Source: a virus. From it: a stretch of DNA of 64,000 nucleotides. The stretch's first letter is position 1; the number at the start of each line of letters is the position of its first letter. The DNA lies in the IMG/VR virus record IMGVR_UViG_3300042731_007944, positions 1-64,000 of that record; one strand, given 5' to 3'. The notes under the pieces were generated by a model that searched no databases, was not told the origin of the DNA, and was given only the letters and a program-made list of their open reading frames with translations. Of this stretch, positions 9,768 through 64,000 are shown in pieces. The position numbers were made by a program, and so were the translations under genes.

Positions 9768-9923
9768 GCATAACAATATTATTCTTTAAACTCTCAACAT
9801 AGATAATACTGACAGATGAACAGGTTTTTTGTCAAGGTATATTTACCAAAAAAGACCCATTTTTTATAATAATTTTTGCGAGAAAAACTTGACAAATTTC
9901 GTCAGCCTTTTTACGCTTCCTTT
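9768..9923. promoter_or_regulatory. attI: attI-L with divergent Pc and PintI promoters
   Basis: G/TTATGC crossover on the minus strand at 9774. Minus-strand TTGACA near 9835 (Pc); plus-strand TTGACA(9889)-17 bp-TACGCT (PintI). Confidence 0.85.
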
Positions 9924-10883
9924 ATGGCACAAAAAAGTAAGCTGTTAGCAGACTTTCAGGTTTGGATGACCAAAAAAGGCTTATCCTACCACACGGAACA
10001 AAGTTATGTCCAGTGGGCCAAACGATTCATTCTCTACTATAACAAAACCCATCCGCTTGAGATGGCAGAGCCGGAAGTGCAAGCCTACCTCTCGTACTTA
10101 GCCGTTGAACGCGAAGTGCGCCCTTCGACACAGAATCAGGCGTTTCACGCCCTGATCAACTTCTATCAGTTTCTCGGCAAGCCACTCTTTAACGTCAACG
10201 CCACTCGCGCCAAAAAGAAAACACGCATCCCGGTCGTGCTCTCACGAAACGATGTTCTTCTCCTGCTTGACCATATCACAAAGCCGCCGTACCCATGTAT
10301 GGCTGAACTGCTCTATGGCTCTGGGTTGCGCATCTCAGAATGCGTCCGATTGCGCGTGAAAGACCTTCTGTTAGATCGTCTGCAAGTCATTGTTCGCAGT
10401 GGCAAGGGCGACAAGGATCGGTTGTCCCTTCTCACGGATAATGCCGTTCCACTCTTGCAAGCCCAGCTTGTCACGGCGCGGCGTGTCTACGACCAGGATC
10501 GCAGGTCTCATCTCGCGGGCGTCTACCTTCCTCCGGCCTTATCTCGAAAATACCCATCTGCCTCAACCTCATGGGAATGGTTCTGGGTGTTCCCGTCTAT
10601 CAAGCGTTCAGACGATCCCCGTGATGACGTTGAACGGCGTCATCATTGGAGCGATCACGCCTTGCGGAAATATATCAAACAGGCCGCGAAACAGGCCGGG
10701 TTTGATACAACGATCACGCCGCACGTCCTGCGTCATTGTTTTGCCACGCATCTGCTAGAGGCGGGATTGGGGGATGGCCGAACGCTTGAACTCGTCCGGC
10801 AGTATATGGGACATGATTCAATTGAAACGACAAAAATCTATCTGCACTGTATGCAACGAGGGCGGAATCCGTTAAGTCGCTAG
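9924..10883 (+). CDS. intI: Integron integrase (tyrosine recombinase)
   Basis: GLRISE, GKGDKDR, HVLRH, GH..TTKIY catalytic set plus the IntI-specific insertion GVYLPPALSRKYP...WFWVFPS...DPR..RRHH; divergent from the attC array. Confidence 0.97.
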   Translation: MAQKSKLLADFQVWMTKKGLSYHTEQSYVQWAKRFILYYNKTHPLEMAEPEVQAYLSYLAVEREVRPSTQNQAFHALINFYQFLGKPLFNVNATRAKKKTRIPVVLSRNDVLLLLDHITKPPYPCMAELLYGSGLRISECVRLRVKDLLLDRLQVIVRSGKGDKDRLSLLTDNAVPLLQAQLVTARRVYDQDRRSHLAGVYLPPALSRKYPSASTSWEWFWVFPSIKRSDDPRDDVERRHHWSDHALRKYIKQAAKQAGFDTTITPHVLRHCFATHLLEAGLGDGRTLELVRQYMGHDSIETTKIYLHCMQRGRNPLSR

Positions 10884-21577: not shown

Positions 21578-21654
21578 TGGTAGCGAGGCTCAGATTTGAA
21601 CTGAGAATTTTGAGCTTATGAGACTCACGGCCTACCGGATTGGCCTACCTCGCT
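21578..21654 (-). tRNA. tRNA with CAT anticodon (Met or Ile2)
   Basis: AGCGAGG/CCTCGCT acceptor stem, GGCC D-stem, TGAGT-CTCATAA-GCTCA anticodon arm, CTCAG-TTCAAAT-CTGAG T-arm, encoded CCA. Confidence 0.93.
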
Positions 21655-59231: not shown

Positions 59232-60311
59232 TCAGATCCTCGTCTTCACGCACTCTTTGAAGTGCAGATCCACGGCCCCGTGAAAATCCACCCCGGCGAA
59301 CTGCTGGCGGAAATCCCGAATATTGCGCCAATCACAGAGAAAGAATGTCTCTGGCTCATCATAAAACAGATGGACATACAGTGGGTGGATCTTTCCGCTC
59401 GTGACGATATCCACCACGGCGGCCTGCATGGCAGCGAGACTCGCAATATCGTTCAGCGATTGCACGTCATAGTGCAGCAGGAGATCCGCTTGCTGCGCAT
59501 ACGCCTTGTGTCGAAACATGCCGGCTGGATTCTCACTCTCCGCCCCGGTGTAGCCGTAGCCTCGCGAGGACGTCCACCAGGCGTTTGCTTCGAGTTCGCG
59601 ATAGGATCCCAGATAGAGCGTCGCCGTTTGAAAATACGACAGCGCCCCATCCACCGGGACGATGCGCCAGTACCGGTACGTCTGATCCAGGTAGAAGATC
59701 AGCTTGTGATCCGTCACGGTGATCGCCTGCGAATACGCCGGGCTGCCCCAACTGTCTGAGGAGTTCGCCTGAAGCGTCAACGTGCTTTGCCCGGCCACCA
59801 GATTGTGATTCATCAGGGCAAAGGCCGTCACCTGCTGCGCACTGCCGAGGTCAATCACGATCGGAAACGTGGCTCCTGACCGAAAAAGACTGTTGGGGTT
59901 CAAATTCAGCAGGTTTCCGGCTCCGTATTTCGCCACGGCGAAGAACTGAAAGGTGTCTTCCAGCGTGAAGTCATCGCCGACCCCCGCCTGCCAGGCGATC
60001 TTAACGCCATAATTCAGCGTGGCAAGCGTCGTGAGGGTCGTGACGCCGGTGGCTTCCCAGCCGGAGCTTTCTGAGGTCTTCCAACGATAGGTCGCCTGCC
60101 CCACAGAGACGCCGGGTGTGATGCTGTCGATCTGGGCGATGTAATCCAGGTTCTGCGCCCCGGCAAACGATCCGGCGGCAAACGCCGCCGCGCTGCCGGT
60201 CCCTCGCGTTTTCTCCACCCCGGAGACGATCCCCCCGGCCTGACTGCCTGCGGCGATCATATCCACGGACGTAATGTAGTTCGTATCCAGATAGCGCTCA
60301 GCGGTATACAT
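59232..60311 (-). CDS. Tail structural protein (distal-tail-like, discoidin-like insert)
   Basis: Immediately after the tape measure gene; IDLGSA..V..NHNL..YRYWR. Confidence 0.65.
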   Translation of the reverse strand: MYTAERYLDTNYITSVDMIAAGSQAGGIVSGVEKTRGTGSAAAFAAGSFAGAQNLDYIAQIDSITPGVSVGQATYRWKTSESSGWEATGVTTLTTLATLNYGVKIAWQAGVGDDFTLEDTFQFFAVAKYGAGNLLNLNPNSLFRSGATFPIVIDLGSAQQVTAFALMNHNLVAGQSTLTLQANSSDSWGSPAYSQAITVTDHKLIFYLDQTYRYWRIVPVDGALSYFQTATLYLGSYRELEANAWWTSSRGYGYTGAESENPAGMFRHKAYAQQADLLLHYDVQSLNDIASLAAMQAAVVDIVTSGKIHPLYVHLFYDEPETFFLCDWRNIRDFRQQFAGVDFHGAVDLHFKECVKTRI

Positions 60312-62773
60312 CAGCGGCTCCCCCAGCGGGTGGCGGTGGACACGACGCGGCTTTCCTGGGTGCGCTGGGCGTTCGTGATCCGCTTGGCAAACGCCTCCAC
60401 GCTGCGCTCGTCCACAATATTGTTGCCTTCAAACACGACGGTCACCGGCGCGGTGTGCGCGGGTGTTGCCGCCTGCGCCTGTACCTGTGGCGGCTGATAC
60501 TGTGACCGCGTGGGCATCGTGAGCACGCCTACCCCGCTCGCGCCGTAATACGATCCGCCCCCGGCCAGCGCACTGGCAATGTTCAGGCCCCCTCCGGCCA
60601 TGTACTCGCCGCCTCCGGCCAACATCGTCGCCAGGCTCGATCCAATCGCCTGCCCGGTCGTCTTCGCCTGGGAGGTCACGCCCTGAAGACTCGATCCGAT
60701 GCCGTCCACGGACGCCACGACTTTGTCCGCCCAGGACGCCATTTCTGGGAACACACTATGCTCATAGGCTTCATCGCCCAACGCCTTCACCTCTTCTTTT
60801 GCGCCAAAAATTTTGTCTTTCAATTGTGTCATGGCGACGCCCACTTTGTCAACCATGCGTGACATGCCTTCACTCACCGCTTCCCACGCGCCTGCTAATT
60901 CATTTTTCAGCAAATCAATAATGGTCCGGATACTGTCGCCAAGCGTGCCAAACACATCCAAATACGCTTCTTTAAAGCCATAGGCGCTATCACCCATTAA
61001 TTCAAATCCGGCAACGACCGCCTGAAACAAGGGCATCGTGATTTTACGCGCCTTCTCGATCCCCCCCGCGATACCATCCAGTACCGGCCTGATCACGTCC
61101 CACGCCACACCGAACGCATCGCCCACTTTTTCAGCGAAATCCACAACTTTCGTCAACTTAGGAATCAATTCTGTGAGCGCCGGGCCGAGCGTCGTCACGA
61201 TCTCTTTGGCCGTTGTGAACGCTTTACTCAGGCCCGTTTGCCCGGATTCGTCCGGCGTGGTGTACTTCACAAACACCTCTTTAATCTGCTCGCCCAGGCC
61301 CTTCAGGGTTTCCCAGAATTTCGAGGCCCCGGCTTCAACAGAATCCCAAAGGGTTGCCCCGTGCTCTTCGACATACGTCATCCAGACTTCAAACTGTTCT
61401 GATAGCGGTCCAATGACGGCCCCGGCAAGTTCCAGGGCTTTATCATGGAGAATACCAAACACCTCATGTAATTTCTCGCTGTTCCGGCTCCACTCCTCAA
61501 ATTTGTCAACCAAGGGGTTAATGTAATTTTTGAGGAAATCCGCAAATGTTTCGGCAAATGGTTCGCCGAATGTGATCAAAATGCTATTCCAAATACTACC
61601 AAGGACTTTTTGCGCTTCTGACGCCCGATCTACCTGACGGGCATAACTGTCCATGTGTGAGTTTGCGCTAATAAATGCGTCCTCAGCAATTTTGAAAATA
61701 GATAAAAAGCCCTCTCCAATAGGCATTGTCTGATCCATTGCCGCTGCTAATGTTGAAATAGCTTTGAGGCCGATTGCTCCAAAAGCATCGGTGGCAAGGG
61801 TATTTTGATCAACCCCCGCCCTGATAGATTCAACGGACATATCCAGGCCGTTAAACGCCTCGGTGAGCAAATTCATTGTGTTGAACGAATCCTGTCCGAG
61901 GGCATATTGAATCATTTCACCGAGTGAAGAGAAGGAGATCCGGCTTTTGCCGGTGATCGCCTCTAATCTGGCAATGGCTGCCGTTCCGCCGTCTGATTGT
62001 GCCGTCAGCATTTTCGCTGCGGCGGCTAACGCATCCGTTTTGGTTGTCAGGTTGAAATAGGCACTTCCCATCTGCCGCGATGCGCTCGTGGCCGCTAATC
62101 CTCCTGAGATCAGAGCCCCGCCCCAGGCTGTCGCTTGTTCATAGCTGAGCCTCATCACAGCGTTATTTTGCCCCATTGCCTTGTTAAAATTGCTGATCTC
62201 AAGCTCGTTCGCATTCATGCTTTTGCTGACAGCATCCAGGGCAGAGAGCATATTTGCGGTAGAATCAGCGGCGAGTTTAAAAATGGTCTGGGATTTCCCC
62301 ATGTGGAGGGCGAGCTTTTCCGTACTACCTCCAAATTTATCAAGTGCAACAGCGCCAATCCCGACTTGACGTGAAAATTCGGCGATTGACTCAGCGCCTT
62401 TGATCCCCATCTGACCAGCAACCTGCGCCACTTCAAGAAGGTTGGCGGCCGTCAGACTCCCAATTGGTTTGGCGAGTTCGCGGATCTGTTTGCCGAACTC
62501 ATCAAGGGCATCGCCAGTCATGCCGGTGGTTTTTCCGACTAGCGCGAGGGCGTCATCATACGTTTGGTAGGCATCGACGGCATCAGTCACAAATTCCGTA
62601 CTGATGTCCATCATCGAGGAGGCGACATTGCTAACAAGGTCAATAATGCCACCGAAGGCTTTGGTCGCAATAGAGGCGAGTGATGTGAATGCGCCACCGA
62701 GAGAAGTGACGCCCTTAATTGAACCCCCGAGATCCAGGCGGACTTTTACGGTAATTTCATCGACTGTTGCCAC
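60311..62773 (-). CDS. Phage tail tape measure protein
   Basis: DDALALVGKTTG..A..AGQMGI core, aromatic 11-residue-type repeats, HSVFP motif. Confidence 0.9.
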   Translation of the reverse strand: MATVDEITVKVRLDLGGSIKGVTSLGGAFTSLASIATKAFGGIIDLVSNVASSMMDISTEFVTDAVDAYQTYDDALALVGKTTGMTGDALDEFGKQIRELAKPIGSLTAANLLEVAQVAGQMGIKGAESIAEFSRQVGIGAVALDKFGGSTEKLALHMGKSQTIFKLAADSTANMLSALDAVSKSMNANELEISNFNKAMGQNNAVMRLSYEQATAWGGALISGGLAATSASRQMGSAYFNLTTKTDALAAAAKMLTAQSDGGTAAIARLEAITGKSRISFSSLGEMIQYALGQDSFNTMNLLTEAFNGLDMSVESIRAGVDQNTLATDAFGAIGLKAISTLAAAMDQTMPIGEGFLSIFKIAEDAFISANSHMDSYARQVDRASEAQKVLGSIWNSILITFGEPFAETFADFLKNYINPLVDKFEEWSRNSEKLHEVFGILHDKALELAGAVIGPLSEQFEVWMTYVEEHGATLWDSVEAGASKFWETLKGLGEQIKEVFVKYTTPDESGQTGLSKAFTTAKEIVTTLGPALTELIPKLTKVVDFAEKVGDAFGVAWDVIRPVLDGIAGGIEKARKITMPLFQAVVAGFELMGDSAYGFKEAYLDVFGTLGDSIRTIIDLLKNELAGAWEAVSEGMSRMVDKVGVAMTQLKDKIFGAKEEVKALGDEAYEHSVFPEMASWADKVVASVDGIGSSLQGVTSQAKTTGQAIGSSLATMLAGGGEYMAGGGLNIASALAGGGSYYGASGVGVLTMPTRSQYQPPQVQAQAATPAHTAPVTVVFEGNNIVDERSVEAFAKRITNAQRTQESRVVSTATRWGSR

Positions 62774-62806
62774 TACGTGGTCGTAGAGCGCCCGTGTTGA
62801 CGCCAC

Positions 62807-62926
62807 AAAAAAACCGGACAGACGGAGTGTAGCGGACCCCGTGTTTGTCCGGTAAGAAAATCATGATTTCGTGTGTTGGCAGCAGTATGGCAGGGGGGTG
62901 GTGAAAAGTCAAGTGAAAATTTTCAC
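62807..62926 (-). promoter_or_regulatory. Operator + promoter + leader terminator of the tail operon
   Basis: GTGAAAATTTTCAC-TTGACT-17 bp-CATACT, then a CCGGACA..TGTCCGG hairpin followed by T7. Confidence 0.65.
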
Positions 62927-62940
62927 TGTGAAAAGAAAGG

Positions 62941-63117
62941 CAACTTATTTTTTTGTGCCATAGGGGAAGCGTAAAAAGGCTGACGAAATTTGTCAAGTTT
63001 TTCTCGCAAAAATTATTATAAAAAATGGGTCTTTTTTGGTAAATATACCTTGACAAAAAACCTGTTCATCTGTCAGTATTATCTATGTTGAGAGTTTAAA
63101 GAATAATATTGTTAGCA
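62941..63117 (+). promoter_or_regulatory. attI: attI-R: inverted copy of the attI/Pc/PintI platform with no integrase
   Basis: 62941-63114 is the reverse complement of 9771-9944 with 4 mismatches; crossover G/TTAGCA at 63111. Confidence 0.93.
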
Positions 63118-63130
63118 GGCTTTTGAATAT

Positions 63131-63226
63131 GTGGCGTGTACCGTAGGGGTAACGAGAGGACAGACCTTGTCTCACGTACTCGCGATGCCGTGAGGCCCGT
63201 TGGTTCGATTCCAACCACGCCACCCA
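63131..63226 (+). tRNA. tRNA-like gene with an atypical anticodon arm, inside cassette R1
   Basis: (G)TGGCGTG/CACGCCA(C)-CCA acceptor, D-loop GG, GTTGG-TTCGATT-CCAAC T-arm, long variable region. Confidence 0.75.
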
Positions 63227-63246
63227 CAGAACAAGAAAAGAGGAAG

Positions 63247-63468
63247 ATGATGTCATTAGCAAAGATATTTTTTACCCAGTTAAGACTATCGCTTTGTTTG
63301 CTTTTTTTGCAACTCGTTTTGAAAATTGTTCCAAAAGATGACGATGAAGGAAAACTCATTATAGCATCAATTGGTGCATTGGCAAAAATGGAGTCGGCCT
63401 TGTTATCGTCACAACTGCCTGCTAACAAGGCCATGCAAAAGACACAGGCCGATGCCCGCAAAAATTAG
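63247..63468 (+). CDS. Small hypothetical protein (cassette R1), reads into attC
   Basis: GAGGA RBS; hydrophobic N-terminus. Confidence 0.6.
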   Translation: MMSLAKIFFTQLRLSLCLLFLQLVLKIVPKDDDEGKLIIASIGALAKMESALLSSQLPANKAMQKTQADARKN

Positions 63469-63542
63469 GAAATAACTATATACTGTATCGCCCGCTATCA
63501 GGTTCACTCTTTGCCTGTGCTTCTGATGGCCGGCCGTTATGA
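63420..63542 (+). repeat. attC: attC site (123 bp) closing cassette R1
   Basis: TGCTAAC...GTTATGA. GCCTGCTAAC is the perfect complement of GTTAGCAGGC at attI-R. Confidence 0.9.
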
Positions 63543-63553
63543 GGCTTCGTTAA

Positions 63554-63829
63554 ATGGCAATCCGATTAAGGAAAATAGAAAATACGTATGTAGCGTTATG
63601 TGCTGTTGAATCAGACGCAAAAGTTGGCGATATTTATCTTGATGATAATATGCACCATGCGCTTTATACGAAATTCGCAATAGATTTTAATAGTGAGCGG
63701 AATTGCGGTATTGTGTTTGATGAAATTGTCGCAAAACTTATGGAGTCTCAAAAGGTTCGTGATGCACAAGAAGAAGCCGAGAGGTGGAGTGCAGAACGCC
63801 GTCATAACGCTCCAAATCAGCAGAGGTGA
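63554..63829 (+). CDS. Phage-like hypothetical protein (cassette R2)
   Basis: GAGG RBS after attC; ALCA.E...GD.YLDD..H.AL..KF. Confidence 0.75.
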   Translation: MAIRLRKIENTYVALCAVESDAKVGDIYLDDNMHHALYTKFAIDFNSERNCGIVFDEIVAKLMESQKVRDAQEEAERWSAERRHNAPNQQR

Positions 63830-63832
63830 CGT

Positions 63833-64000
63833 ATGCGAGAAATAAATTTATTGAAGTGGATGCGAGATCATTGTTTGCGTTATGGCAGTATTGGAATTGC
63901 TGCAAAAAGATTCACTGTCTCGAATATTTGCTATGAATTGTTCATAGACCGCGATACCATTACGACGGAGATTGAAAAAATGGTTGAAAGTGGTTTGGTA
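63833..64000 (+). CDS. Partial ORF, possibly winged-helix (MREINLLKW...)
   Basis: GAGGTG RBS; open to the end of the window. Confidence 0.5.
   Translation, partial: MREINLLKWMRDHCLRYGSIGIAAKRFTVSNICYELFIDRDTITTEIEKMVESGLV

Follow-up and report, generated by a model that had tools for sequence, protein, structure and literature searches.

A tRNA-like gene sits within cassette 1 of an integrase-less integron array, behind a duplicated attI/promoter platform, in the phage genome studied in this work. Going by its sequence, the gene is derived from a tRNA and apparently non-decoding. That it is functional in some way, be it as a tRNA mimic or as a processing signal, seems to us slightly the better supposition; the reading put first here, that of a processed, non-decoding tRNA mimic acting via its acceptor end, is a tentative one, which taken by itself stays short of probable. 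The window (i.e., the whole stretch of DNA analysed, positions 1-64,000) is the first 64 kb of the IMG/VR virus record IMGVR_UViG_3300042731_007944, which is linear, 104,987 bp long and ~89% complete. The features of the array and its surroundings are as follows:

9876/9924-10883: integron integrase IntI
62941-63114: right-hand attI/promoter platform, an inverted copy of the intI-proximal region, without its own intI
62990-63019, plus strand: predicted Pc-like outward promoter, TTGTCA-18-TATTAT
63111-63119, plus strand: crossover core G|TTAGCAGG, the start of cassette 1
63112-63536, plus strand: cassette 1 of the right-hand array, 425 bp, with the tRNA-like gene, a small ORF and attC
63131-63226, plus strand: tRNA-like RNA gene, 96 nt counting G-1, delimited by ARAGORN, fold and a G+C island
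63239-63468, plus strand: ribosome-binding site AGAGGAAG and an ORF of 73 or 72 aa, beginning at ATG 63247 or 63250
63417-63543: attC of cassette 1, ~127 bp, with R'' at 63418-63426 and the R' crossover at G63536|TT

The initial annotation had placed a cloverleaf about 20 nt past an attI-R crossover, which is borne out by the anatomy of the region. An inverted repeat of 174 nt (9771-9944 and 62941-63114) is 98% complementary between its two copies, and in each copy the identity runs as far as GTTA at the cassette side and ends exactly there, with the right-hand crossover at G63111|T63112. The two attI copies stand in inverted orientation with 53 kb of phage genes between them, and intI is found at the left copy only. 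Its product shares ~44% identity with IntI1 across 89% of its length, matches PF00589 at 10245-10850 and has integron integrases as its nearest Atlas clusters; in IMG/VR a single, distant IntI relative was found. Recombination between the inverted attI copies would flip the phage core. The Pc-like promoter agrees with the consensus at 10 of 12 positions in the scan, and its predicted start lies ~105 nt upstream of the tRNA-like RNA.

Cassette 1 starts, as integron cassettes do, at a G|TTRRRY crossover, and its start core and the R'' core of its own attC, CCTGCTAAC at 63418-63426, are exact reverse complements of each other (GTTAGCAGG at 63111 versus CCTGCTAAC at 63418). The bottom strand of attC forms a single long imperfect hairpin which brings its two ends together, and the next cassette follows the same core rule, starting with GTTATGAGG at 63536 and having its R'' core, CCTCATAAC, at 64056. 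In the left array, the ORF of the first cassette begins ~20 nt past the crossover and is preceded by no tRNA-like element, so the element on the right belongs to cassette 1 and not to the platform. The description of the gene as first-position integron cargo can thus be kept in one respect, its place in cassette 1 of a genuine attC array, and has to be qualified in another, as the same cassette carries the ORF at 63247/63250-63468. Since the cassette holds a protein gene too, to speak of an RNA instead of an ORF overstates the oddity of this cassette.

The ORF, the last 17 codons of which fall within attC, is present in public gene calls with the downstream start (P0001/P0005). When 1.84 billion representatives were searched in full with HMMER, one distant relative was obtained (P0002/P0004; 65/73 aa; 57% identity over 37 aa), encoded on short metagenome contigs of 1.0-1.4 kb, P0002 on one from ENA (1368 bp) and P0004 on one from JGI (1035 bp); the conserved core reads LRLSLC...LKIVPK...EG...SIG.LAK, and the P0002 alignment covers only the region from the downstream ATG start. 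No Pfam or PHROG family was found for the 73-aa protein, nor any match of the cassette protein family in IMG/VR. The 73/72-aa ORF is probably a real gene, judged on start site and relative, in which case the RNA is not the sole cargo of the cassette.

Elsewhere in the record, the following genes are of relevance:

9876-10883 and 98146-99204: two tyrosine recombinases, both more than 35 kb from the tRNA-like gene
21578-21654, minus strand: bona fide tRNA-Met (CAU), 64.9 bits with RF00005, CCA encoded
60311-62806, minus strand: tail tape measure gene, 831 aa, upstream of the tRNA-like gene

The tape measure gene, for the product of which no relative was found in IMG/VR, is followed on the minus strand by tail-fibre-like genes. 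Downstream of the tRNA-like gene the plus strand has a series of small ORFs, mostly without family, one of them with a helix-turn-helix domain and another with a partial DNA methylase domain. The tRNA-Met (CAU) is the sole standard tRNA of the 105-kb record. A c-di-GMP-I-GGC riboswitch aptamer was also seen in this phage (43350-43426, minus strand), at 60.2 bits and Rfam gathering level. An attP site, or an array anchored at a tRNA, was considered and rejected, as no part of the tRNA-like gene is repeated anywhere in the record and the tyrosine recombinases are so far off.

The initial annotation also listed a perfect acceptor stem, a T arm, an encoded CCA, a possible G-1:C73 pair, a non-canonical anticodon loop and a long variable region, and each of these was found in its place. 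The acceptor helix pairs G63131-G63138 with C63216-C63223 in 8 bp without exception. Taking U63132 as position 1, this gives a 7-bp stem (U1-G7/C66-A72) plus G-1:C73, formed by G63131 and C63223, and CCA (63224-63226) comes directly after C73. The T arm is canonical (GUUGG-UUCGAUU-CCAAC), bringing the acceptor/T helix to 8+5, or 13, bp. The D stem, which comes after U8 and A9, has three pairs (C11:G24, G12:C23 and U13:A22), with C10 and A25 mismatched, and the D loop AGGGGUA supplies A14, G15, G18G19 and A21. The ARAGORN cloverleaf has an anticodon stem of four pairs plus an A27/C43 mismatch and the anticodon loop AGACCUU, with G in the place of U33 and U at 37 in the place of a purine. The variable region of 25 nt encloses a 6-bp hairpin (CUCGCG-AUGC-CGUGAG). 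Across acceptor, T and extra-arm helices 19 of the 19 pairs are perfect and all the elbow nucleotides are retained, the tertiary-contact positions present being U8, A14, G15/C48, G18G19, A21, G26/A44, T54-A58 and C56. Defects are confined to the D stem (C10/A25), to 27:43 (A/C) and to the anticodon loop.

Folding predictions draw a similar line across the molecule. Pair probabilities are at least 0.94 for the acceptor, T and extra-arm helices, whereas in the D/anticodon region an alternative made of a UACC/GGUA pairing and a 9-bp arm with a 5-nt loop is favoured over the cloverleaf (-38.4 versus -31.2 kcal/mol), the pair probability of the D stem being ~0. As this alternative is the more stable of the two, only the top half of the RNA is structurally secure. 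Within the 265-nt leader transcript the tRNA-like module keeps the same predicted fold. Its G+C content is 60%, against 27-33% in the flanks, and the spacers around it are short: 20 nt from the attI crossover to the RNA and 12 nt from CCA to the ribosome-binding site.

The check proposed at the outset, by ARAGORN and Infernal, gave a divided answer. ARAGORN calls a tRNA-like gene (tRNA-Gly(acc), 95 nt, 63132-63226), and it makes one call per 6.3 Mb of block-shuffled copies of the phage genome; this rate, together with the G+C island, the helix pair probabilities and the unchanged fold in the leader, places the gene beyond chance. With RF00005, the membership cut-off of which is 29 bits, the gene was not matched at gathering level, nor even at E<=10. 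The top Rfam family was that of tRNA-Sec (RF01852), at 23.9 bits versus a cut-off of 47 (E=0.03 over 751 nt), and its alignment has gaps and non-standard pairs at the D and anticodon regions.

As regards the known classes, the RNA has the acceptor stem, the GTTCRANYC T arm and the G18G19 with U8/A14 of a canonical elongator, and is devoid of U33, purine 37, the 5-bp anticodon stem and the RF00005 score. Like bacterial tRNA-His, it encodes G-1:C73 in an 8-bp acceptor stem followed by CCA, with a U before the expected RNase P cut; bacterial tRNA-His, however, has a GUG anticodon and a short variable loop of 4-5 nt, whereas the cassette RNA has a non-canonical loop and a class II arm. Allo-tRNAs have a 12-bp branch (8/4 or 9/3), and here the branch is 13 bp. 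The 13-bp acceptor/T helix (8/5) and the long extra arm recall tRNA-Sec; unlike tRNA-Sec, the RNA lacks a 6-bp D stem, a UCA anticodon and a discriminator left free before CCA, and this identity was rejected on these grounds and on its low score. An identity as tmRNA was likewise rejected, since ARAGORN found none and Rfam gave no tmRNA or Y-RNA-like family at E<=10.

Relatives of the tRNA-like gene were searched for by several means. The region 62800-64000 and the RNA alone, compared by blastn with INPHARED (50,697 phage records), gave only T-arm matches of ~30 nt; by the same means, no match was obtained for the cassette in PLSDB plasmids or for the RNA in E. coli genomes. In IMG/VR, 21-23-mers taken from either end of the RNA and from its extra arm had no exact match, and neither did the pattern ACAGACCTTGT-N20-40-GGTTCGANTCC; two hits of this pattern in GTDB genomes and four in JGI metagenomes are at places where ARAGORN sees no tRNA, and they look like chance. 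A further pattern, made from features common to this gene and a second tRNA-shaped gene of the record (see below), matched 18 loci in IMG/VR, mostly ordinary phage tRNAs, none of which resembles the tRNA-like gene in the D, anticodon or extra-arm region. Such pattern scans are exact-match and insensitive, and so weak evidence that the RNA is unique. Within the 105-kb record the covariance model R1 had no match besides the RNA itself, and it matched neither the Shewanella phage M16-3 nor the sole IMG/VR record with an IntI relative. In the collections searched, therefore, the tRNA-like gene is a single instance by sequence, and evidence from conservation is absent there. The record encodes no HisRS-like, AbiEii or PIN protein which could serve as partner, so any partner would be encoded by the host.

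The second irregular tRNA-shaped gene lies 9.5 kb past the end of the window:

73459-73590 of the same record (10659-10790 of L011): second irregular tRNA-shaped gene

It has an 8-bp acceptor stem, a linker of TA, D and T arms of normal build and a long variable region, is without CCA and carries ~45 extra nt in the anticodon loop, so that ARAGORN calls it, as tRNA-Phe(gaa), only with introns allowed; by blastn it has no relative in the phage collection. The 8/5-plus-long-arm build is common to this gene and the cassette RNA, and four of the 13 acceptor/T pairs differ between them on both sides and yet pair. With two sequences only, such pair changes show little more than that both are tRNA-like. 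Taken together, the two genes suggest, by their sequences, that the phage retains non-standard tRNA shapes. A G+C-rich, ORF-poor stretch comes directly after the second gene.

Other phages in IMG/VR hold tRNA-like sequences that ARAGORN rejects (L017/L024, L021 and L022). Two of these (L017:6392-6486 and L024:100-186, both on the minus strand) are identical and come from contigs of 61.6 and 101.6 kb, otherwise unrelated to the phage record; they have normal D and T arms and, in place of the anticodon arm, a hairpin with GAGUCCAAAAGG, similar to the GAGUCCAAAGG hairpin of the gene at 73459-73590. In two IMG/VR tRNA arrays (L025:7035-7122 and L034:4565-4652) an 87-nt class II tRNA with a GUU anticodon was seen, labelled tRNA-Asn by ARAGORN; a long-arm body with a GUU anticodon is an unusual pairing.

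How could such an RNA be of use? RNase P, the CCA/3′-end machinery, the T-loop modifiers and EF-Tu all read parts of tRNA that are intact here, whilst the anticodon part, which is damaged, is the one needed by the ribosome. Some synthetases rely little on the anticodon: HisRS reads the acceptor end, via G-1:C73 and CCA, and SerRS the long arm. In the explanation that we tentatively put first, the tRNA-like RNA and the ORF would be transcribed together from the duplicated Pc-like promoter, RNase P would cut between U63130 and G63131, keeping G-1 as in bacterial tRNA-His, and 3′ trimming would halt at the encoded CCA, leaving a stable RNA of ~96 nt and, as a by-product of its excision, an ORF message released from its leader. 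The RNA could then be charged by HisRS via G-1:C73, and perhaps by SerRS via the long arm, or else be bound or modified by an enzyme which recognises both acceptor end and extra arm. Kept out of the ribosome, it would act during infection as a tRNA mimic, a decoy or an aminoacyl carrier.

Several lines of evidence point in this direction: the ARAGORN call, the perfect helices of 8+5+6 bp and the presence of the tertiary-contact positions; the G+C island, the same fold in the leader, the membership of a cassette and the Pc-like promoter; the compact spacing to a real ORF with a relative; and the second irregular tRNA shape in the same phage. With the defects found only in the D stem, at 27:43 and in the loop, the pattern resembles that left by selection on the top half and not uniform decay. 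As the tRNA-Met of the phage also encodes its CCA, the CCA at 63224-63226 is read likewise. Precedents are given by the G-1 tRNAs (PMC5389517) and by MenT3 (PMC7450476), both discussed below. The same explanation is weakened by the occurrence of the gene as a single instance in the collections searched, the lack of covariation, the alternative pairing predicted for the D/anticodon region, the rejection by general tRNA models and the lack of a partner in the record.

The explanation that survives next best, which we hold to be possible and rather doubtful, is that of a remnant, a pseudo-tRNA: a tRNA gene of class II, from phage or host, would have been caught in a cassette, or have hitch-hiked with the ORF, and have lost its anticodon loop, being now inactive and too young to show decay in its other parts. 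This would fit a gene with no homologue in any collection searched, with no RF00005 match and half of the tRNA-Sec cut-off, without U33 and R37, with mismatches at 27:43 and 10:25 and with a minimum free energy fold departing from the cloverleaf. Inactive allo-tRNA pseudogenes on mobile elements have been published (PMC5389517), and the ARAGORN-rejected sequences on phage contigs (L017/L024, L021 and L022) indicate that further tRNA-like sequences of this sort are held by phages. Random decay, however, should not spare all the top-half pairs and the elbow and cluster its damage as seen here. Moreover, the gene stands where expression would be highest, in a streamlined cassette of 425 bp which, as its two short spacers indicate, has no spare DNA, and this also speaks against a mere remnant.

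Alternatively, the element could be a processing or stability signal only, by which RNase P and tRNA 3′ processing free the ORF message from the attI leader, as happens in tRNA-mRNA co-transcripts, the RNA having no role of its own. That the element lies in the 5′ leader, with 12 nt between it and the ribosome-binding site, is as expected under this explanation, and so are the autonomous folding in the leader and the identity of the intact parts, which are those that RNase P reads (i.e., the acceptor/T helix, the elbow, CCA and the U before the cut); the lack of the element in the first cassette of the left array would make the signal cassette-specific. On the other hand, RNase P needs neither G-1:C73 nor a 6-bp extra arm, and no integron case was found in the literature searched. 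We therefore regard a role in processing alone as unlikely.

A very unlikely explanation is that of a sense/antisense control module, in which an antisense RNA acts as in type I toxin-antitoxin systems and the tRNA-like leader stabilises or gates the message of the small protein. It derives from a further feature of the cassette:

63358-63385, minus strand: predicted antisense promoter-like site within the ORF, TTGCCA-16-TGcTATAAT, 11/12 with extended -10

From this site a predicted antisense transcript, beginning at about 63351, would run back across the start of the ORF and on through the tRNA-like gene. Sites scoring at least 11/12 number nine in the record versus 1.8 in shuffles, and this is the only one of them with a TG extended -10 (0.07 expected). 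The N-terminal stretch of the small ORF is hydrophobic, and toxin-antitoxin cassettes are reported to be common in integrons (PMC13108822). The N-terminus of P0002, however, is much less hydrophobic and charged residues are conserved, which makes a membrane toxin doubtful; in addition, no terminator was found for the predicted antisense RNA, and nothing ties the tRNA shape to the scheme. Pairing of the RNA with the ribosome-binding site of the ORF was rejected too, as no complementarity was apparent by eye.

Finally, a working decoder tRNA-Gly(ACC), or else a coding 5′ part of a 110-aa ORF (GTG 63136 to 63468), is hardly credible: the ARAGORN label and the frame open from 63136 into the ORF are in its favour, whereas the lack of U33, of purine 37 and of an RF00005 match, with only four pairs in the anticodon stem, argue against decoding, and the coding reading was rejected, since GTG 63136 has no ribosome-binding site, the strong one precedes ATG 63247/63250, where the public calls start, and P0002 aligns from the downstream start only.

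Going back to the non-decoding tRNA mimic, its closest known counterparts are the G-1 tRNA1 and allo-tRNAs of Mukai et al., NAR 2017 (PMC5389517), which likewise combine G-1, a non-His anticodon, a long extra arm, a five-stem junction and residence in mobile or accessory loci. The E. coli HisRS charges irregular tRNAs that combine G-1 with a Thr anticodon better than it charges tRNA-His itself, and yet in an E. coli reporter no His was inserted at the matching codon; such tRNAs were found near toxin-antitoxin loci (PMC5389517). The branches of the published tRNAs are 12 bp long (8/4, 9/3, or 7/5 with G-1 added), their anticodon loop has the normal 7 nt, and they are encoded in polycistrons of soil Acidobacteria (PMC5389517). 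The cassette RNA differs in being 8/5, with a disabled loop, and a single gene in a classical integron cassette of a phage, with no sequence relative detected. Further counterparts are the phage tRNAs that counter tRNA-targeting defences, which are similar in being tRNA-shaped accessory cargo, and the toxins that act on the acceptor end. MenT3, of the AbiEii family, extends the 3′-CCA and prefers tRNA-Ser, and its authors note the long variable arms of its substrates (PMC7450476); the cassette RNA has the long arm and CCA of the tRNA-Ser that MenT3 prefers.

The speculation can be taken further: the phage would carry and swap a non-decoding tRNA mimic by means of its integron and, once cut by RNase P, the RNA would serve as a sponge for an acceptor-end defence enzyme (e.g., AbiEii/MenT-like nucleotidyltransferases or acceptor-stem nucleases of host defence) or as a carrier of histidine for non-ribosomal use, the dead anticodon loop sparing translation from corruption. 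As a whole, this chain of steps is improbable. To our knowledge, the tRNAs described as acting in counter-defence still decode and have altered loops, and a non-decoding sponge for an acceptor-end toxin is without precedent.

As for the integron itself, the Shewanella prophage vB_SspM_M16-3 (L013; Front Microbiol 2023; PMC9892861) likewise has IntI and an integrase-less array, each with its own attI, among structural genes. It differs from the phage studied here, in which 53 kb separate the two attI copies and these stand in inverted orientation. Neither ARAGORN nor R1 found a tRNA or a tRNA-like gene in vB_SspM_M16-3, and the text of PMC9892861 does not refer to tRNA.

Integron cassettes are usually regarded as carriers of protein genes, and phage-borne integrons are a recent finding, the cargo of which is now being mined for defence and counter-defence functions. 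Non-coding cassettes were already known, in a paper on Vibrio cassettes that makes no mention of tRNA (PMC1382264), and in the literature searched no precedent was found for a tRNA-like gene as integron cargo. Phage-borne integrons, non-coding cassettes and irregular non-translating tRNAs are thus all known, and the novelty of the tRNA-like gene in an integron is one of vehicle.

In conclusion, with a cassette led by a tRNA-shaped RNA, structured RNA genes would join the pool open to mobilisation by integrons. Were the RNA a remnant only, its value would be smaller, that of a record of tRNA genes ending inside cassettes, with a bearing on the origin of cassettes. If it is charged and remains untranslated, it would offer a tractable natural case of the irregular tRNAs so far known only from soil metagenomes. 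Should the mimic prove true, it would be the first RNA-gene cargo of an integron with a defined role, and may represent a new class of anti-defence RNA.
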